Assembly (NCBI GenBank): GCA_965221775.1
Contig: CBDCSU010000004.1
Span: forward strand, 480,001-544,000
Source of the DNA: Candidatus Latescibacterota bacterium
Lineage (GTDB): Bacteria > Latescibacterota > UBA2968 > UBA8231
Length of the DNA: 64,000 nucleotides
Direction of reading: 5' to 3'
The stretch's first letter is position 1. Every line of letters begins with the position of its first letter. The notes beneath the pieces are model-generated. The model worked only from the letters and a program-made list of their open reading frames with translations. It did not search any database and was not told the DNA's origin. The translations under genes were made by a program, and so were the position numbers. Shown here one piece after another: positions 28,785 through 37,461 of the stretch.

Positions 28785-29432
28785 TCAGAAGCGCAGTCTC
28801 AACTCGGCCAGCCGAAGGGGGCGGTCCCTGGCCGCGGCCTCGTCGAGGAGCAGCTCCGGCTCCCGCTCCTGGTGCACGGCGTTGGCCGCCCGCACCTGGT
28901 CCCGCAGATGGAACAGGGAGGCGACCTTGGTCCAGGCCAGCAGTGGGATCCAGCCCGCCGCTCCGCTCCGCCCGGTGGCCCACGCCGTACCTCCGGCGAT
29001 GGCCGTGACCCCGACCATGGCGTATCCCTGGCCGTACTCGCCGGCGTAGAAGTAGCCGAACCCCGGCAGCACGGCCTCGATGGCGACGGCGAGGCCCGTC
29101 CACTTCGGAGGCCGGTACGGCGCCATCTGCCGAGGGATCCGGTGGACGCCGATCTCGCGGGCCGAGCGGATGTGGGCCAGCGGATAGGCGGCGGGCCGTA
29201 GCTGCAGGGGGCCGATGACCTCCTGCACGCTCACCGTGTCGGCGCCCAGGGTCTCCACGCGGACCTGCCGCATGGCCCCGGCCTCGAGGGTGATCTCGCC
29301 CCAGAGCCCCTCGCTCTGCAGCCGCTCCAGGACCGGACGCACCTGCTCCTCCCCGAAAGCAGCCGGGGCCCCGAGGGCCAGGGCCAGGAGCCCGGCGAGG
29401 ATCGCGGATCGAATCCCTTCCATCCCGTTCAT
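28785..29432 (-). CDS. hypothetical exported/membrane protein
   Basis: RBS-like AAGGGAG before the ATG at 29432; signal peptide; LPGFGYFYAG hydrophobic segment. Confidence 0.6.
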   Translation of the reverse strand: MNGMEGIRSAILAGLLALALGAPAAFGEEQVRPVLERLQSEGLWGEITLEAGAMRQVRVETLGADTVSVQEVIGPLQLRPAAYPLAHIRSAREIGVHRIPRQMAPYRPPKWTGLAVAIEAVLPGFGYFYAGEYGQGYAMVGVTAIAGGTAWATGRSGAAGWIPLLAWTKVASLFHLRDQVRAANAVHQEREPELLLDEAAARDRPLRLAELRLRF

Positions 29433-29568
29433 ATGGTCTCCCTTTTCCATCATTCGAGTTTACGGGCTGCCCCGCGAAGGGTGCAAGTGGAGGCCCGTCC
29501 CGCGGAAGTTCCCTCGTGGCCCTCGGGCCGCCTGTCTCCCCCTCCGGCACCTGCCTATCTTGGCGCCG

Positions 29569-31344
29569 ATGGAAGACCCGGGCGGCGCCACCAAACCCTC
29601 CGGCGGCCTCGATCCACCCGACAACGGCCGCATCATCCGATTCCTCAAGCGCCACGCGGCGCTCATGGAGCTGGCGGGGCTCAACGCCTTCCGCGTGCGC
29701 GCCTTCGACAACGCGGCGCGCATGCTCGAGGAGCTGGAGATCGACATCGCCGAGATGTCGGAGGCCGACACCCTGACGGAGATCGACGGCATCGGCAAAG
29801 GGGTGGCGGCCTTCGTCGCCGAGTACATCGACCGCGGCACGACGGCGGCCTACGAGGGGCTCACCGAGGAGGTTCCGGAAACCCTTCTCGACCTCCTGCG
29901 CATCCCCGGCCTGGGCCAGAAGAAGGTCAAGGCCGTGTACGAGACCCTCGGCATCACCACCCTGGAGGAGCTGGAGGCCGCCTGCCGCGACGGGCGCCTG
30001 GGGGAGTTGCCGGGCTTCGGCGAGCGGACCCGGGAGAGCACGCTCCGGGCCATCGAGGGCCTGGACCGGTTCCGGGGCCGTTACCGCTACGACCAGGCCC
30101 TGGCCGACGCCCGGGGCCTGCTGCGGGCGCTGGAGGCCCATCCGCGCACGATCCGGGCCAGCCTCGCCGGAAGCCTGCGCCGCCGCCGGGAGGTGGTGAA
30201 GGACATCGACATCGTCCTCAGCACGGAAGCCCCCGGCGAGGTGGGCGCCTTCTTTGCGGGACGGCCCGGGGTGGTCGAGGTGATCGCCCGCGGGGAGCGC
30301 AAGGTCTCCGTGCGCCTGGAGAGAGGCCCGCAGGCCGACCTGCGGCTCGTCGACGACGCCCGCTTCCCTTCCCTTCTGCACCACTTCACCGGCAGCCGCG
30401 ACCACAACGTCGCCATGCGCTCCCGCGCCCTGGCCCGCGGCATGCATCTCAACGAGTACGGACTCTTCCATGGGCGGGAGGGCGGCGGCGCCCCCGTCCC
30501 CTGCGAGGACGAGGCCGATCTCTTCCGGGCCCTCGGCCTCGGCTACGTGCCGCCGGAGCTGCGGGAGGGCCTCGGCGAGGTGGAGGCGGCGGCGGCCGGA
30601 GAGCTGCCGCGCCTGCTGACGGCGGGGGACGTGCGGGGCCTGCTGCATGTCCACACGCGCGCCTCCGACGGCGTCGATACGCTGGAGGAGATGGTCGACG
30701 CCGCGCGCCTCCGAGGCCACGAGTACATCGCCATCTGCGATCACTCGAAGTCGGCCGGCTACGTCTACGGCATGAAGGAGGCCGACGTGGAGGAGCAGCA
30801 CCGCGAGATCGACGCCCTGCAGGCGGAGCGGCCCGACATCCGCATCCTCAAGGGCATCGAGTCCGAGGTGCGGAAGGACGGCTCCCTCGACTACGACGAC
30901 GACTTCCTCGAGCGCTTCGATCTCGTCGTGGCGGCGGTGCACGACACCATGGGCATGGAGGGGGCCGAGCTGACCCGCCGCTTCGTGGAGGCGGTGGCGC
31001 ATCCGGCCACCTCGGTCCTCGCCCACCCCAGCGGGCGGATCCTGCTGGAGCGCGACGGCTTCCCCTTCGACCTGGAGGAGGTCGTGGCCGCCGGCGCCGC
31101 CCACGGCGTGGCCCTGGAGCTGAACGCCCACCCCGCCCGCCTCGATCTCGACTGGCGCTGGCTGCGCCGGGCGCGCGACCTCGGCGCGCCCATCGCCGTC
31201 AACACCGACGCCCACAGGATCGCCGATCTCGACCACCTCGACCTCGGCATCGGCATCGCCCGCAAGGGCTGGCTCACGGCCGCGGACGTCATCAACACCC
31301 GGTCCGTCGACGAGCTGTTGAACTGGACCGGGCGCGGGCCCTGA
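29569..31344 (+). CDS. polX: DNA polymerase X with PHP 3'-5' exonuclease domain
   Basis: HhH motifs IDGIGKG, IPGLGQK; AGSLRR, KDIDI, HFTGS; PHP HVHT, DHS, NTDAH. Confidence 0.95.
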   Translation: MEDPGGATKPSGGLDPPDNGRIIRFLKRHAALMELAGLNAFRVRAFDNAARMLEELEIDIAEMSEADTLTEIDGIGKGVAAFVAEYIDRGTTAAYEGLTEEVPETLLDLLRIPGLGQKKVKAVYETLGITTLEELEAACRDGRLGELPGFGERTRESTLRAIEGLDRFRGRYRYDQALADARGLLRALEAHPRTIRASLAGSLRRRREVVKDIDIVLSTEAPGEVGAFFAGRPGVVEVIARGERKVSVRLERGPQADLRLVDDARFPSLLHHFTGSRDHNVAMRSRALARGMHLNEYGLFHGREGGGAPVPCEDEADLFRALGLGYVPPELREGLGEVEAAAAGELPRLLTAGDVRGLLHVHTRASDGVDTLEEMVDAARLRGHEYIAICDHSKSAGYVYGMKEADVEEQHREIDALQAERPDIRILKGIESEVRKDGSLDYDDDFLERFDLVVAAVHDTMGMEGAELTRRFVEAVAHPATSVLAHPSGRILLERDGFPFDLEEVVAAGAAHGVALELNAHPARLDLDWRWLRRARDLGAPIAVNTDAHRIADLDHLDLGIGIARKGWLTAADVINTRSVDELLNWTGRGP

Positions 31345-31734: not shown

Positions 31735-32655
31735 TCACTCCCCGGCCCCCGGAGATCTCTTCAGCCACGAGGGCAGGCGAATCCCCTCCGACAGCCGCCA
31801 GGCCGTCAGGTAGAGGCTGGCGGTGAAGGCCACAGCCACCCGGCCCCTCTCCTCGGCGAAGGCCCGGGCCGGCGCGCTCACCGGGTCGAGACCGCCGGCC
31901 AGCTGGTAGACCCGGTCCACCTGTCCGTTGCTCTCCAGGACCTGGTCCCGCACGGCGGCGAACAGCTCCCCTTCCAGGGGGGCCGCCTCCACCCCCTCCA
32001 CCAGCTCCGCGGCGGTCAGGCCGATGCGCTCGATGAGGGAGTCCACCTTCTCGTGGATGCCGGCGCCGGTCCGCGAGCCGTCCTCGCCGACGCGGCCGTT
32101 GTAGTGGATGGTGGCGTGCAGGGGCTGGACGATGTCCCCGGCGTAGTGGGCCAGGAAGCCGGCGTAGACCAGGCACTTGTCCTGGATCACCCGGTTCTCC
32201 GGCCATTTCCGGTGCTCGGCGAAGGCTACGGCGAGACGCTCGACGTACTCGGTGACGGCGTACGGGGCGAACCCGACCTCTTCGGGTCTGACGCCCAGAG
32301 TGTGGCAGAGGGCGATGAAGTCGTAGCGCTTGGCGGGCAGCTGCTTTCCCTGCAGGAGCTCGATGTCGGCGAAGTGCTCGGGATGCTCGCCGTGCCGGAG
32401 GTGCGGGGCCCGGCGGTTCTTGGCGACGTCGGGGTCGAAGGAGATGTGCGCCGCCGTCTCGGCCCCGGCGCGGAAGAAGGCGGGCACCTCCTCGGGCAGG
32501 GCCAGGACCGCCGCCCGGGTCAGCAGGCCGTGGGTGTCCCCCCACCAGGCCGCGGCCGGCTGCGCCAGGGCCAGGGCGGCGAGGATCACACCCACCGCCG
32601 GCCGGAAGCCGCTCCGCGTTGACACCCCTGAAGGGCTCCGTATAGTAGATTTCAT
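31735..32655 (-). CDS. secreted S1/P1 nuclease or Zn-dependent phospholipase C fold protein; start uncertain
   Basis: signal peptide ending AAA then W-W-G-D-T-H; HFAD, HYAGDIVQPLH, GIHE. Confidence 0.75.
   Translation of the reverse strand: MKSTIRSPSGVSTRSGFRPAVGVILAALALAQPAAAWWGDTHGLLTRAAVLALPEEVPAFFRAGAETAAHISFDPDVAKNRRAPHLRHGEHPEHFADIELLQGKQLPAKRYDFIALCHTLGVRPEEVGFAPYAVTEYVERLAVAFAEHRKWPENRVIQDKCLVYAGFLAHYAGDIVQPLHATIHYNGRVGEDGSRTGAGIHEKVDSLIERIGLTAAELVEGVEAAPLEGELFAAVRDQVLESNGQVDRVYQLAGGLDPVSAPARAFAEERGRVAVAFTASLYLTAWRLSEGIRLPSWLKRSPGAGE
32619..32646 (+). promoter_or_regulatory. sigma70 promoter (TTGACA-N16-TATAGT) for the peroxiredoxin
   Basis: near-consensus hexamers about 80 nt upstream of the ATG at 32725. 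Confidence 0.65.
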
Positions 32656-32724
32656 CTTGCCTGCTTCACCCTCCCGGCCGCCGGACACGGCGGTCATCCC
32701 CTTCTGCCACAGGAGTTACGAGCC

Positions 32725-33360
32725 ATGGCGATCCGATTGGGCGACGAAGCGCCCGACTTCACAGCCGAGACCACGGAAGGAACGATCTCCTTCCACGAGT
32801 GGATCGGGGACGGCTGGGCCGTCCTGTTCTCCCACCCCGCCGACTTCACCCCGGTGTGCACCACCGAGCTGGGCACGGTGGCCAAGCTCAAGTCCGAGTT
32901 CGAGAAGCGCAACGTGAAGATCGTCGCCCTGAGCGTCGATCCCGTCGATGCCCACGACCGCTGGATCGGGGACATCAACGAGACCCAGAACACGACTGTC
33001 AACTTTCCCCTCATCGCCGATCCGGATCGGAAGGTCTCCGACCTCTACGACATGATCCATCCGAACGCGCTCGACAACCTGACGGTGCGCTCCGTCTTCG
33101 TCATCGGCCCCGACAAGAAGGTCAAGCTCACCCTTACCTACCCGGCCTCGACGGGCCGCAACTTCGACGAAATCCTGCGGGTGATCGACTCCCTGCAGCT
33201 GACCGCCGAATACTCGGTGGCCACCCCGGCCAACTGGACCGACGGTGAGGACTGCATCGTCGTGCCGGCGGTCTCCGACGAGGATGCCAGGAGCAAATTC
33301 CCGAAGGGCTTCGAGGCGGTGAAGCCGTATCTGAGGGTTACGCCCCAGCCGAACCGGTAG
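32725..33360 (+). CDS. 1-Cys peroxiredoxin (Prx6)
   Basis: FSHPADFTPVCTTE, YPASTGRNFDEILR, ATPANW. Confidence 0.96.
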   Translation: MAIRLGDEAPDFTAETTEGTISFHEWIGDGWAVLFSHPADFTPVCTTELGTVAKLKSEFEKRNVKIVALSVDPVDAHDRWIGDINETQNTTVNFPLIADPDRKVSDLYDMIHPNALDNLTVRSVFVIGPDKKVKLTLTYPASTGRNFDEILRVIDSLQLTAEYSVATPANWTDGEDCIVVPAVSDEDARSKFPKGFEAVKPYLRVTPQPNR

Positions 33361-33407
33361 TCCCCCCCCGGATCCCATCCGTCCCCGGATCGCCGGCGGA
33401 GGCGGCC

Positions 33408-33878
33408 TCAGAACGGCAGCCCGTCGTCCTCCAGCGCTCCCGGGGAACGGGTGGCCGTCGTGCCGGGCTCCGCCTCGCCCTCCCGCCCGTACAGGAGATC
33501 GAGCTCGCCGGGCCCCCCGGCGCCGTCGACGAAGCGGAGGTCGGTGACGACGATCTCCGTCACGCTGTGGCGGTGACCCTTGCCGTCCTCCCATTTCCGG
33601 GTCTGCAGGCGCCCCTCCACGTAGATCCGGACCCCCTTGCGCAGATGCTGGCTGGCGACCTCCGCCAGCCGGCGCCAGAGCACGAGGCGGTGCCACTCCG
33701 TGCGCCGCCGGCGGCCGCCCTTGCGGTCGGTCCAGGACTCGTCGGTAGCGAGGCTGGCGGTGGTCACCTGGGTCCCGGAGGGGGTGAACCGGGTCTCCGG
33801 ATCGTCGCCGAGGTTGCCCACGAGGGTCACCTTGTTGAGGCACTTGCCCGGTGCCGGGCGGGACAGGAGGTCAGACAT
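33408..33878 (-). CDS. ssb: single-stranded DNA-binding protein
   Basis: LNKVTLVGNLGDDPE, TEWHR, YVEGRLQTRKW, acidic tail DDGLPF. Confidence 0.93.
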   Translation of the reverse strand: MSDLLSRPAPGKCLNKVTLVGNLGDDPETRFTPSGTQVTTASLATDESWTDRKGGRRRRTEWHRLVLWRRLAEVASQHLRKGVRIYVEGRLQTRKWEDGKGHRHSVTEIVVTDLRFVDGAGGPGELDLLYGREGEAEPGTTATRSPGALEDDGLPF

Positions 33879-34053
33879 CGCCCTTGTCCGGCGGGGTGCG
33901 GCGCTTGCGCCGCGCCTGCGGGGTCTCGATGCCGTAGCGGCGGCACAGGCGCCCGAAACTCCCCGGGGCGATGCCGAGGGCCACCCCGGCGTCGCGGTTG
34001 CTGGCGTAGATCCGGGCGGCCCGTGCGATCCGCTCGCGGTCGAACTGCTCCAT
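33871..34053 (-). CDS. small basic helix-turn-helix protein (60 aa, Fis-HTH-like)
   Basis: GGAGG RBS; NRDAGVALGIAPGSFGRLCRRYGI resembles an HTH; 8-nt overlap with ssb. Confidence 0.7.
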   Translation of the reverse strand: MEQFDRERIARAARIYASNRDAGVALGIAPGSFGRLCRRYGIETPQARRKRRTPPDKGDV

Positions 34054-34123
34054 GACTCGGAACCTCCTGGCCTCGAGGTTGACATGAGAAGAGCCTGATC
34101 GGCGGAGGATCCGATCGGCCTGT

Positions 34124-34162
34124 GATGCACATCAGTATACTATTCATATGTGCATCTGTCAA
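34124..34162 (-). promoter_or_regulatory. near-consensus sigma70 promoter (TTGACA-N17-TATACT) overlapped by inverted repeat GATGCACAT-N15-ATGTGCATC
   Basis: -35 at 34157-34162, -10 at 34134-34139; repeat arms 34124-34132 and 34148-34156; conspicuous AT-rich island. Confidence 0.85.
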
Positions 34163-34180
34163 CCTCTGGACCGGGGGCGG

Positions 34181-35332
34181 TCACGCCTCCCGCGTCCCCA
34201 CCTCCTCCAGCACCTCCAGGATCCTGTCTACGTCGGAGGTACCGTTGTAGACGTGGCCCGAGATGCGCACGCGGCCGTACTCCCCCCAGACCAGGACCCC
34301 CCGCGAGGCGAGCCTCCGCGCCAGGGCCGCGGCATCCTCGTCCAGAAAGCAGGTATTGCCGGAGCGGGCCGGCCGCCGCGAGGGGCTGATCACGGTTCGC
34401 CCGAGGGACCTGAGTCCCGCGTCGATCGCTTCCGAGAGGTCGCGGGCATGCTCCTCGGCGGCCTCGACCCCGATCCTCTCGAGATGGGCCAGCGCCTTCT
34501 CCAGGAACATGATGACGATCATGGCCGGATTCCCCGGCTCAAGGCGCTCGGGCATGGGCCGCACCGCCACCTCCGGGGTCCGAAGGGCTCCCTGATCCGG
34601 CCACACGGCCAGGTTGCGCCAGCCGAAACAGCTGTCCCGGACCACTTCGCCGGCCCGCTCGCTCAGGTAGCAGGGCGCGGTGCCGTGGGTGGCCAGCATC
34701 CACTTGTAGCTGCTGCTCACGCACAGGTCCGTCACCGCGGCGGGCACCCTCACGACTCCGGAGGCGTGGGTGGCGTCGACGGCCAGCAGGCACCCCGGGT
34801 GGGCGGACAGCCCCCGCGCCAGGGCTTCGACATCCAGGTTCTGTCCCGTGTAGAAGCCCACCTGGCTCACGGCGAGGACGCGGGTCCTGCCGTCGACGGC
34901 GGCCAGCAGCTCCTCCTCCCCCACGTGCCAGTCCTGGTGCGGCACCATGCGCACCTCGACACCCAGGTTGGCGATCTCCCGCCAGGCATACGCCACGGAG
35001 GGGAACTCCAGATCGTCGGTGACGACGTTGTCGCCGGGCCGCCAGGGCAGGCCCCGGGCCAGCCAGCCCATGCCCTCGGCCGCCGAGGGCACGAAGGCCA
35101 CGCGGTCCCTGGCGACCCCCCACAGGCGCGCCACGCGACCGCGGCAGCTCTCGCCCCGGCGGTAGATCTCCTCACGGCCCTCGAGTCCCCCGCTCTTGAG
35201 GCGGGCGAACTCGCGGTGGACCTGGTCGAACTCCTTCAGCCAGGGCGCCTCCCCTCCCGTGCACAGGTGAGCGACCCCGTCGATTCCCGTGAACAGCCCC
35301 GGGTCGAGCAACGGTGCGGTCTCCCTCGTCAT
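34181..35332 (-). CDS. class V PLP-dependent aminotransferase/cysteine desulfurase-like enzyme
   Basis: DLEFPS, VSQVGFYTG, VDATH, SSYKW (PLP Lys), RISGHVYN. Confidence 0.85.
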   Translation of the reverse strand: MTRETAPLLDPGLFTGIDGVAHLCTGGEAPWLKEFDQVHREFARLKSGGLEGREEIYRRGESCRGRVARLWGVARDRVAFVPSAAEGMGWLARGLPWRPGDNVVTDDLEFPSVAYAWREIANLGVEVRMVPHQDWHVGEEELLAAVDGRTRVLAVSQVGFYTGQNLDVEALARGLSAHPGCLLAVDATHASGVVRVPAAVTDLCVSSSYKWMLATHGTAPCYLSERAGEVVRDSCFGWRNLAVWPDQGALRTPEVAVRPMPERLEPGNPAMIVIMFLEKALAHLERIGVEAAEEHARDLSEAIDAGLRSLGRTVISPSRRPARSGNTCFLDEDAAALARRLASRGVLVWGEYGRVRISGHVYNGTSDVDRILEVLEEVGTREA

Positions 35333-37461
35333 GACGACTCCCCTCCTGCCTCGCTCTCCTCGTCGATGGCGATCCGGGCCTCGGCGCGCGCCGGCTCGAG
35401 GAGATCCTCGTCGCGCAGCAGATGGGCCACCCGAAGCTCCGGCATCCCCGCCTGCCTCGTGCCCATCACCTCCCCTGGCCCACGTAGTTCCAAGTCCTTT
35501 CGTGCCAGTTCGAAACCATCCATGGTCTCACATAGAGAATCAAGTCTGGCCCGGGCGCCCGCGTCGTCCTCGCCGGAAGCGTGGTCGACCAGGATGCAAT
35601 ACGACGCCGACGCCCCCCGGCCGACGCGCCCGCGCAACTGGTGCAGCTGCGCGAGGCCGAAGCGCTCGGCGTGCTCCACCACCATCACCGTGGCGTTCGG
35701 GACGTCGACCCCGACCTCGATGACGGTGGTCGCCACCAGGACGTCGATCTCCCCTTCGGCGAACCGGCTCATGATGCCGGTCTTGTCGTCGGCCGGCAGC
35801 CGGCCGTGCAGGAGTTCCACCCGCAGCTCCTTCAACGGCCCCCGGGCCAGCTCCTCGAAGCCGGCCCGGGCCGAGTTCAGGTCGGAGCGCTCCGACTCCT
35901 CGATGACCGGGTAGACCACGTAGGCCTGGCGCCCCTCCGCTGCCTGGTCGACGAGGAAGGCGTGGATCCGTTCCCGGTGCGAGGGGTCCCGCCGGACGGT
36001 GCGCACCGCCCGGCGCCCCGGCGGCATCTCGTCGATGACCGAGACCGCCAGATCGCCGTAGAGGGTCATGGCGAGGGAGCGGGGAATCGGCGTGGCGGTC
36101 ATGATCAGCAGGTCGATCCCCTCGCCCTTGGCCGACAGACGGGTGCGCTGGGCGACGCCGAAGCGATGCTGCTCGTCGACCACGGCCAGCCCCAGCCGGG
36201 CGAAGGAGACCCCTTCCTCGATCAGGGCGTGGGTGCCGACGGCGATGCGCACGGAGCCGCTGGCGATCCCCGTCAGGAGCTCGCGGCGCACCACCGCCCG
36301 CTGGCCGCCCTTCAGGAGGACGATCGCCTCGACGCCGGCCGGCGAGGCGAGGCGGCGCAGGGTGTGGAAGTGCTGCTCGGCGAGGATCTCGGTGGGAGCC
36401 ATGAGGGCGGTCTGGCAGCCGCTCTCCACGGCGGCCAGGGCGGCGCACAAGGCGACCAGGGTCTTGCCCGAACCCACGTCGCCGTGCAGCAGCCGGCGCA
36501 TGGGGCGGGGCCGCGCCATGTCGGCGCCGATCTCGCCGATCACCCGCAGTTGCGCAGCCGTCGGCTCGAAGGGGATGGAGGCGAGGAGCCGGGGGACCAG
36601 CTCCCGGCTGGGGGGGATGGCACGGCCCGGGCGTCCGGCCAGCTGCCGGCGCCGGCGCTCGAGCTCGCGCTGGAGCAGGAACAGCTCCTCGAAGGCGAGG
36701 CGGCGGCGGGCCCGCTCCGCCGCCCCGAGGTCGGCGGGGAAGTGGGCGTCCCGCAGGGCCTGCCCGAGGCCGATCAGTCCCTGCCGCGCCTCCCCACCCA
36801 CGGGCAGCTGCGTGCCCACGGAGGGCAGCGAGCGCGTCAGGGCATCGCGCATGAGACGCCGGAAACCGCGGCTGCCCAGGCCGCGCTCCTTCATCTCCGC
36901 GCTGGAGCCGTAGAGGGGGACGACGGTCCCCGTGTGCAGCCGGCCGGCCCCGACGGTCTCGGCGTCGGAGAGGTGCTCGTACTCGGGGTGGCTCACCTGG
37001 CGCCGGCCGCGGTAGATCTCGATGCGGCCGCTGAGGGCGATCACGTCCCCGGCCTCGAAGGTGTGGTACCGGGCCCCCTGGAACCACACGCACCGCAGTC
37101 TGCCGCTGCCGTCCTCGACCTCCACGGTGTGAGGGGGCGAGCGTCGGCCGCGCCGGACGGGGGGCGGCCGGGAGGCGGAGCGGACGCTGCCGACGAGGGT
37201 GACTTCCTCCCCGATGGGGGCCTCGGCGATGGCGACGATCCGGCTGCGGTCGATGAACCGCCGGGGCAGCCGGGCGAGGAGATCGGCCACCGTGGCCAGG
37301 CCCTCCTTGCGCAGGGCCCGGGCCCGCAGGCGGCCGATACCGGGCACCTCTTCGATGGCCAGCCGCGCCGGTTCGCCGTGGAGGAGCGGCAGGGCCGGGG
37401 CCGCCTCGACCGGCGCCTCCGCGGTGCCGGCCGAGGCCGGGCGCCTGTCACCGGCGGGCAT
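35329..37461 (-). CDS. recG: ATP-dependent DNA helicase RecG
   Basis: GDVGSGKT, APTEILAEQH, DEQHRFG, MTATPIPR, QLRGRVGRG, DGFELARKDLELRGPGE. Confidence 0.97.
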   Translation of the reverse strand: MPAGDRRPASAGTAEAPVEAAPALPLLHGEPARLAIEEVPGIGRLRARALRKEGLATVADLLARLPRRFIDRSRIVAIAEAPIGEEVTLVGSVRSASRPPPVRRGRRSPPHTVEVEDGSGRLRCVWFQGARYHTFEAGDVIALSGRIEIYRGRRQVSHPEYEHLSDAETVGAGRLHTGTVVPLYGSSAEMKERGLGSRGFRRLMRDALTRSLPSVGTQLPVGGEARQGLIGLGQALRDAHFPADLGAAERARRRLAFEELFLLQRELERRRRQLAGRPGRAIPPSRELVPRLLASIPFEPTAAQLRVIGEIGADMARPRPMRRLLHGDVGSGKTLVALCAALAAVESGCQTALMAPTEILAEQHFHTLRRLASPAGVEAIVLLKGGQRAVVRRELLTGIASGSVRIAVGTHALIEEGVSFARLGLAVVDEQHRFGVAQRTRLSAKGEGIDLLIMTATPIPRSLAMTLYGDLAVSVIDEMPPGRRAVRTVRRDPSHRERIHAFLVDQAAEGRQAYVVYPVIEESERSDLNSARAGFEELARGPLKELRVELLHGRLPADDKTGIMSRFAEGEIDVLVATTVIEVGVDVPNATVMVVEHAERFGLAQLHQLRGRVGRGASASYCILVDHASGEDDAGARARLDSLCETMDGFELARKDLELRGPGEVMGTRQAGMPELRVAHLLRDEDLLEPARAEARIAIDEESEAGGESS

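Follow-up and report, generated by a model that had tools for sequence, protein, structure and literature searches.

The window analysed here is a stretch of 64,000 nucleotides (nt) of DNA (G000:C4:480001-544000) from the six-contig, 5.36-Mb metagenome-assembled genome (MAG) of an uncultured, sponge-associated Candidatus Latescibacterota bacterium, and DNA near-identical to it is present in sponge and marine metagenomes. On its minus strand lies a short operon in which the gene of a 60-amino-acid (aa) protein with a predicted helix-turn-helix (HTH) fold is followed by a copy of ssb, the gene of a single-stranded DNA-binding protein (SSB). These genes stand behind a near-consensus promoter whose -10 element is enclosed by a wide inverted repeat, called the dyad in what follows. 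This dyad is a real, conserved and lineage-specific operator of the repressor type, common to the HTH-ssb operon and to a duplicated recA gene of the same genome, and its arms are identical to the half-sites found in the LexA boxes of the lineage.

The HTH-ssb operon and its promoter

The promoter reads TTGACA-N17-TATACT on the minus strand (34162-34134), that is, with a spacer of 17 nt between the two hexamers. It reaches a sigma-70 consensus score of 11/12 and is the sole site of this kind in 33250-34300, where shuffled sequences gave a mean of 0.1 (n=50). The promoter belongs to an AT-rich island, in which the GC fraction over 34040-34189 is 0.50-0.60 (60-nt windows) compared with about 0.62-0.80 in most of the neighbouring windows; the intergenic island itself measures 127 base pairs (bp) and has 50-60% GC in a genome of 70% GC. 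The arms of the dyad form a perfect 9-bp inverted repeat, and the 15 nt between them enclose the -10 element (34156-34124). The window contains a single match to the dyad, compared with none in 100 shuffled sequences. Seen from the -35 element, the left arm takes the position that in lexA promoters belongs to the left half-site of the canonical box. The promoter in its AT-rich island, the inverted repeat around the -10 element and the HTH-like gene overlapping an ssb with an intact acidic tail had all been described in an original prediction made from the letters alone, and all of them are indeed present. The coordinates of these features are collected in Table 1.

Table 1. Features of the HTH-ssb operon and its control region (positions in the window).
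Feature	Position	Strand	Basis or remark
-35 hexamer TTGACA	34157..34162	minus	consensus scan; TTGAC(A/G) kept in orthologous ssb and recA1 promoters
-10 hexamer TATACT	34134..34139	minus	inside the dyad spacer; positions 15-20 of the aligned sites are TAT(A/C/T)(C/T)T
Dyad left arm GATGCACAT, core TGCACA	34148..34156	minus	directly 3' of the -35 element; LexA-type half-site GCAC
Dyad right arm ATGTGCATC, core TGTGCA	34124..34132	minus	LexA-type half-site GTGC; over the predicted transcription start
Inferred 5' untranslated region	34054..34123	minus	AGGAGG ribosome-binding site at 34068-34063
Gene of 60-aa stand-alone Fis-type HTH protein with basic tail	33871..34053	minus	open reading frame (ORF); HTH_50 match below threshold
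Paralogous ssb, 156 aa, OB fold, acidic tail DDGLPF	33408..33878	minus	PF00436, TIGR00621

The ATG of the small HTH gene is preceded at 10 nt by AGGAGG, and its 3' end overlaps the ATG of ssb (ATGTCTGA). As expected of an SSB, the product of the latter gene matches PF00436 with 125.2 bits (cut-off 26) and TIGR00621 with 146.4 bits (cut-off 53.95), and it ends with the tip DDGLPF. The operon consists of two genes, because the gene that comes next after ssb, encoding a 1-Cys peroxiredoxin, is convergent. The genome contains three SSB genes (G000, C4:237638-237949, C4:513531-513839 and C4:1004982-1005293). One of the other copies, 58% identical to the ssb of the window, has a long Gly/Pro linker and ends in DDDLPF; judging by these two traits, it is probably the housekeeping ssb. 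A Pfam search of the genomic context of the other two copies revealed no ribosomal-protein neighbours. The third SSB (141 aa, 31% identical) is devoid of the usual acidic D-D-x-L-P-F tip.

From the position of the -10 element, transcription is predicted to start within the right arm of the dyad, at about 34126-34128, so that the RNA could not hold both arms. Among the contigs of three RNA-library runs there are pieces of this region: X18 covers 33924-34111 and shows presence only, and X20, which comes from a relative, covers 33510-34038 and thus runs across the HTH/ssb junction. The segment 34112-34170 is covered by no RNA contig of these three runs, though a DNA contig spans it. The two RNA contigs end at different places, and such contigs give neither a start site nor proof of co-transcription.

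A second site at recA1 and conservation among relatives

The pattern TGCACA-N15-19-TGTGCA has two exact sites in the whole 5.36-Mb genome. One of them is the dyad of the window, and the other (G000:C6:1042897-1042927) is found directly upstream of recA1 (TIGR02012, 538 bits). The layout of this second site is the same: TTGACA is followed after 2 nt by ATGCACA, the spacer contains a -10 element TATTCT, and the right arm reads TGTGCAT. When the genome was scored with a matrix of the conserved arms, these two sites reached 29.1 and 26.6 bits and the next best among 5.36 million positions 12.7 bits. Besides, 133 promoter-like sequences of the type TTGAC(A/G)-N16-18-TAnn(A/C/T)T occur in the genome, and the dyad accompanies these two only. 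The dyad overlaps promoters of repair genes, enclosing the -10 element of both HTH-ssb and recA1, which is an overlap of the kind looked for in a LexA operator.

The genome has two recA genes, recA1 (G000:C6:1042994-1044088) and recA2 (G000:C6:1420947-1421954), which are about 70% identical. Two recA matches were obtained in 21 of the 22 relatives searched within f1, the taxonomic family of the source genome, and none in the remaining one, and a single recA in all 14 genomes of the sister families f2 and f3. The recA2 gene lies directly behind a pgpA-like gene, without a promoter of the type described above, and this upstream neighbour is shared with the single recA of f2. Since recA2 keeps the neighbour of the f2 type, recA1 appears to be the duplicate to which damage control has passed. 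Both target genes of the dyad, recA1 and the ssb of the window, are thus extra copies.

Conservation in the relatives was followed at both promoters. From each of 30 relatives, the locus of its best HTH match was taken; TTGAC-N2-4-TG..(C/A)A-N17-TG..CA is present within about 400 nt upstream in 20 of these loci, and one more carries it with N18. No dyad was detected within 1.5 kb upstream in 9 of the 30, where the HTH gene closely trails another ORF. The ssb gene comes after the HTH gene in at least 22 of the 30 loci and clearly does not in 3; the other 5 were not counted, either on account of a wrong frame chosen in high-GC DNA or of a contig end. Among the recA1-type loci of f1, TTGAC-N2-4 and the dyad with N17 are found in 19 of 21. 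The two exceptions are G011, with a degenerate dyad, and G018 (genus g10), in which two complete canonical boxes, TGCAC-N4-GTTCA, flank the -10 element in place of the split dyad.

Altogether, 39 promoter sites from relatives belonging to many genera keep the arm-to-arm spacing at N17. When 35 distinct sites are aligned, conservation is seen in the arms and in the -10 element, and the rest of the spacer is variable; four positions of each arm were fixed by the search pattern, and the free arm positions C2, A3, T25 and G26 are conserved in 30-34 of the 35 sites. The arms read TGCAC/GTGCA or, in some genera, TGAAC/GTTCA. At the level of whole genomes, TGMACA-N17-TGTKCA was found in 34 of 41 f1 genomes against 6 of 41 for a reversed-pattern control, and the matches with an AT-rich spacer and a -10-like element are nearly all from these two promoters, with exceptions in genera g14 and g17. 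In a sample of the phylum (168 genomes), the strict form TGMACAW-N15-WTGTKCA is present in 62 of 75 f1 genomes versus 5 of 92 others. That the dyad arose by chance or is a structural feature with no role in regulation is very improbable and is contradicted by these data: no shuffle reproduced it, its two occurrences in the genome each exactly enclose the -10 element of repair genes, and its arms, unlike the spacer, are conserved in 12 genera or more. The proposal of a lineage-specific SOS-like regulon or an autoregulated HTH-ssb module, with which the original prediction had ended, is supported by the recA1 site (the sole other exact one in the genome), by the conservation of the motif upstream of orthologues and by the homologues of the small HTH protein that are described below.

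LexA and the small HTH protein as candidate regulators

There is one lexA in the genome (G000:C5:927550-928173). Its product matches PF01726 (80.6 bits), PF00717 (114.5 bits) and TIGR00498 (215.5 bits, cut-off 110.95), and both the DNA-binding domain and the S24 self-cleavage domain are present. The promoter of lexA itself carries a canonical box, TTGACA-aat-GAACGAATGTTC-ag-TATCGT, and TTGAC(A/G)-N3-G[AC]AC-N4-G[TG][GT]C is found between the -35 and -10 elements in 30 of 30 lexA loci from f1 and f2. The LexA half-site of the lineage is therefore TGCAC/GTGCA or TGAAC/GTTCA, which are exactly the arms of the dyad, and both the GCAC and the GAAC variants are present in lexA boxes and in dyads. 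Related to this, the single recA promoter of f2 and f3, two families without the small HTH, contains an ATAC-N4-GTTC box between -35 and -10. The 25 LexA sequences read from f1 and f2 all contain the identical peptide STNGVRTTL, which is taken to be the recognition helix by comparison with known LexA proteins. No lexA was found in G014 and G016 (90% and 78% complete), which is uninformative, and G028, a congener of G014, has the gene. The original prediction had set the dyad apart from the Bacillus box GAAC-N4-GTTC; this is correct with respect to the spacing and does not hold for the arms, which are the same half-sites as those of the lexA promoters in this lineage.

The lexA promoters of f1, f2 and f3 also show an extra half-site-like element, G.GCAG, just after the -10 element (loci L119-L122, L134-L143, L205 and L207), which in L119-L122 is in register with the right arm of the split dyad. 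A wider LexA regulon was considered and rejected: scans of the genome with G[AC]AC-N4-GT[GT]C (213 matches), with GAAC-N4-GTTC and over the 133 promoter-like sites gave few candidates linked to a promoter, and these canonical-like boxes, located before genes for a LytR_C/RsfS-type protein and a TonB-dependent receptor and before unnamed ORFs, are treated as chance matches.

As the arms are the LexA half-sites of the lineage, LexA is the likeliest repressor. The reading favoured here, with a probability of roughly 55%, is that of an SOS-type mini-regulon specific to f1, which would be controlled by LexA by means of a non-canonical split operator. A strong sigma-70 promoter would be clamped by TGCACA after the -35 element and by TGTGCA over the transcription start, and a repressor sitting on both half-sites would block the RNA polymerase. 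The same device would serve two operons, the pair formed by the small HTH and ssb, and recA1. After DNA damage, the self-cleavage of LexA, stimulated by RecA, would release it from the DNA and a burst of extra RecA and SSB would follow. LexA binding at these sites, repression and damage induction are thus what we infer from the arrangement of the sequence. The half-sites are about 23 bp apart, and three modes of binding could be envisaged: i) two LexA dimers, each of them anchored to one good half-site, ii) a single complex bridging bent AT-rich DNA, and iii) binding assisted by the presumably co-transcribed small HTH. The core SOS genes of other phyla include recA and ssb (PMC3091678), and a LexA of the Gram-positive type is described as able to occupy a lone half-site in the phage GIL01, especially in the presence of a small helper protein (PMC4551915).

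Several observations weigh against control by LexA. The gap between GNAC and GTNC in the 39 sites is of 19 nt and not of the canonical 4, and LexA proteins are described as requiring rigid spacers (PMC8565304). With a LexA matrix of canonical spacing, lexA boxes score 15.9-22.3 bits and most boxes paired with the inner sequence only about -3 to 9; nevertheless, such inner-paired boxes reach 11-16 bits in 10 of the 39 ssb and recA1 sites, among them the recA1 site of the source genome (14.6 bits). Compared with the spacing from arm to arm, the distance to the -35 element (2-3 nt in the 39 sites) is less constant, which suggests one complex in contact with the two arms, and LexA is not known to bind in this way. 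Besides, no other SOS genes with either type of box were found in this genome. Finally, the small HTH family and the wide dyad are each limited to f1, so that the actual binder, or a partner needed for binding, may be the HTH. A pair of ordinary adjacent LexA boxes was also considered as a full explanation of the operator and rejected, the inner half-sites scoring poorly in most genera and being little conserved.

The small HTH protein has HTH_50 as its best Pfam match (E 7e-5, 22.9 bits, under the gathering threshold of 27 bits), and no NCBIfam entry matches it. It has 268 homologues of similar length, all of them unnamed or hypothetical save one UniRef label beginning with 'DNA bindin', and a precomputed PF18024 match exists on a few of them. 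Proteins closely related to it are encoded in MAGs labelled mostly as Candidatus Latescibacterota and in some cases as Gemmatimonadota. Among the orthologues the core formed by residues 8-48 is nearly invariant. The AlphaFold2 model, with a predicted local distance difference test (pLDDT) value of 83, has helices at 6-15, 19-26, 30-40 and 45-52. The top Foldseek rows are the DNA-binding domain of a sigma-54 activator (2m8g), Fis and the DNA-binding domain of TyrR, with template modelling (TM) scores of 0.54-0.58 and E values all above 1; no row has E of 0.001 or less, and high E values are expected for so small a domain. The HTH-like nature suggested by the original prediction is in keeping with homologues and model, with this reservation about the Foldseek values.

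A profile of the family matches 70 of 75 f1 genomes and none of 92 outside. The family is also multi-copy, with 11 tblastn matches in this genome. The positions of the paralogues (G000) include C5:1240284, C5:978511, C6:2281534, C4:39120 and C6:2384104, and others are located at C6:2129455, C6:2374086 and C1:19971; four of the 11 lie within C6:2.13-2.38 Mb. Over the 330 nt upstream of each of the 8 paralogues examined, there is neither a promoter of comparable type nor a wide dyad.

It is possible, if rather doubtful, that the repressor is the small Fis-type protein of 60 aa, which would bind the dyad, regulate its own operon and control recA1, leaving only lexA to LexA. Its gene lies immediately 3' of the dyad promoter, which is the usual layout of an autoregulator, so that autoregulation is possible, and its predicted fold resembles that of the DNA-binding domains found in Fis and sigma-54 activators. 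The distribution of the family is moreover the same as that of the strict dyad given above. In genus g16, the left arm of the recA1 dyad is gone and the right one kept in the closely related genomes G063 (98% complete) and G067 (90%), where no HTH was detected, and G024 and G140, which bear the HTH, have kept the dyad; in genus g10 there is no ssb-linked HTH orthologue, and recA1 of G018 has the canonical LexA boxes mentioned above. However, the arms of the dyad are the LexA half-sites of lexA promoters even in families without the HTH, which would have to be a coincidence, and an element resembling the right arm follows the -10 of lexA promoters in f2 and f3 too, both of which lack the HTH. 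Judging by its size, a three-helix protein of 7 kDa could not span some 23 bp as a simple dimer. The genera of the 9 dyad-less HTH loci still keep the dyad at recA1 (degenerate in g3), a proper dyad stands at recA1 in G010 (86% complete) and G141 (73%), in which no HTH was found, and the examined paralogues of the protein are devoid of the operator.

Between LexA and the HTH as sole regulators there is a tentative suggestion, of rather low probability, that the SOS switch has the small HTH as a second, lineage-specific component, which would either bridge or stabilise LexA or replace it as repressor. The protein would then have arisen in one family of Latescibacterota along with the second recA copy, recA1, and the split operator, and the -10 element would be clamped from both sides whether the HTH helps LexA or takes over its half-sites. 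At the level of families, the co-distribution of the HTH with the split dyad and the recA1 duplicate is striking, though it concerns a single lineage and therefore possibly a single evolutionary event. A prediction of the complex of a LexA dimer and the small HTH gave a score of 0.23 (mark 0.32, without controls), which speaks neither for nor against binding. If this suggestion is true, both the operator architecture and the accessory factor are undescribed in cellular SOS systems.

It is unlikely that another regulator acts on the dyad, or that the latter is a composite in which the left arm is what remains of a LexA half-box, or an incomplete one, and the right arm is a conserved element of the start site. 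Such an origin would agree with the persistence of the right arm where the left one has been lost (G063 and G067), with the occurrence of G-N-GCAG after the -10 of lexA promoters in three families at differing distances (N11 or N13 after the box), and with a dyad spacing that fits no known mode of LexA. Nevertheless, the two arms are palindromic to one another over up to 9 bp, the GCAC/GAAC variation appears on both sides, and the spacing between them is N17 in the 39 sites from many genera. Furthermore, a right arm stands at that place in none of the other 131 promoter-like sites of the genome. The LexA box of Fibrobacter is also a palindrome of the TGC.C...GTGCA type, and NtrC-type HTH domains read half-sites of the TGCAC type; neither fact separates the rival readings.

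Related systems, significance and further observations

Control by LexA through a split operator can be compared with several known systems. The radiation-response regulon of Deinococcus, governed by DdrO and IrrE, controls recA and ssb by means of a palindrome, and the repression is relieved after damage. The present system is like it in having a lineage-specific palindrome on recA and ssb promoters; however, the motif of DdrO is another one and its repressor belongs to the XRE family and is cleaved by a metalloprotease, whereas the arms described here are LexA half-sites. Myxococcus xanthus has two recA genes, only one of which is damage-inducible. A duplicated recA with divided regulation is also found here, recA1 with the operator and recA2 without it, but in an unrelated phylum, with another operator architecture and with an ssb paralogue predicted to be co-regulated. 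As for the small protein, it shares with the C-terminal domains of Fis and of sigma-54 activators (HTH_8 and HTH_50) a predicted three-helix HTH and a sequence pattern of the Fis type, and differs from them in being a stand-alone protein of 60 aa with no receiver, ATPase domain or Fis N-terminal arm.

The LexA operator of the Gram-positive type, or Cheo box, is given as CGAAC-N4-GTTCG in PMC3091678. The dyad resembles it in its half-sites, G[AC]AC and GT[GT]C, and in its overlap with recA and ssb promoters; as in Cheo-box systems, a LexA with S24 self-cleavage is present, and the lexA promoters of the lineage carry the canonical form. The differences are that the half-sites of the dyad are 19 nt apart instead of 4 and stand on either side of the -10 element, with inner half-sites that are weak or absent, and that the regulon apparently comprises only two operons plus lexA. 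In the phage GIL01, the P1 operator is made of dinBox1 and a half-site, dinBox1b, to which LexA binds weakly and is strongly stabilised by gp7, a small LexA helper of 50 aa (PMC4551915). A single recognisable half-site near the promoter and a very small protein in the same genetic module are common to both cases. Unlike gp7, which has neither DNA binding nor an HTH, the small protein of the window is a predicted HTH protein; there is no sequence likeness between them and the analogy is functional only. The arrangement of sites is also different, because GIL01 has a full box plus a half-site downstream of the start, and a symmetric pair around the -10 element is present here.

SOS regulation has been mapped phylum by phylum. 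The literature search found nothing in print on SOS regulation in Latescibacterota, nor on a LexA-binding motif in Gemmatimonadetes. A conserved operator in which 19 nt separate the LexA half-sites, and which occurs only at a duplicated recA and a duplicated ssb, is at odds with the view of LexA as a rigid-spacer binder (PMC8565304). The outcome would be either a wider range of LexA binding modes or a small regulator, new to science, acting through these half-sites. In addition, the operon provides a first functional lead for an HTH family of about 60 aa that is found in f1 only and has up to 11 tblastn matches per genome.

Two other sets of sites were observed in relatives. In at least 12 genomes of genus g14 there is a third conserved site with three TGAAC/GTTCA half-sites (TGAACAA.CCATGATGTTCATGTTGTTCA; for example G152:C1:4807158-4807186 and G163:C1:3185018-3185046), which may be another member of the regulon or may be coding sequence. 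In G017, three identical matches to the dyad pattern with a GC-rich spacer (C1:487617, 5044812 and 6213893) probably represent a repeated element rather than a promoter.

The operon of the window lies among genes related to repair and stress, which encode a PolX-type polymerase with a PHP domain, the 1-Cys peroxiredoxin and RecG. Neighbouring genes are located at 29215-31344 (plus strand), 31735-32697 (minus), 32725-33360 (plus) and 35329-37461 (minus). A neighbouring protein of 320 aa, which looks secreted and has no Pfam match, has a homologue encoded directly 3' of the HTH gene in locus L026.

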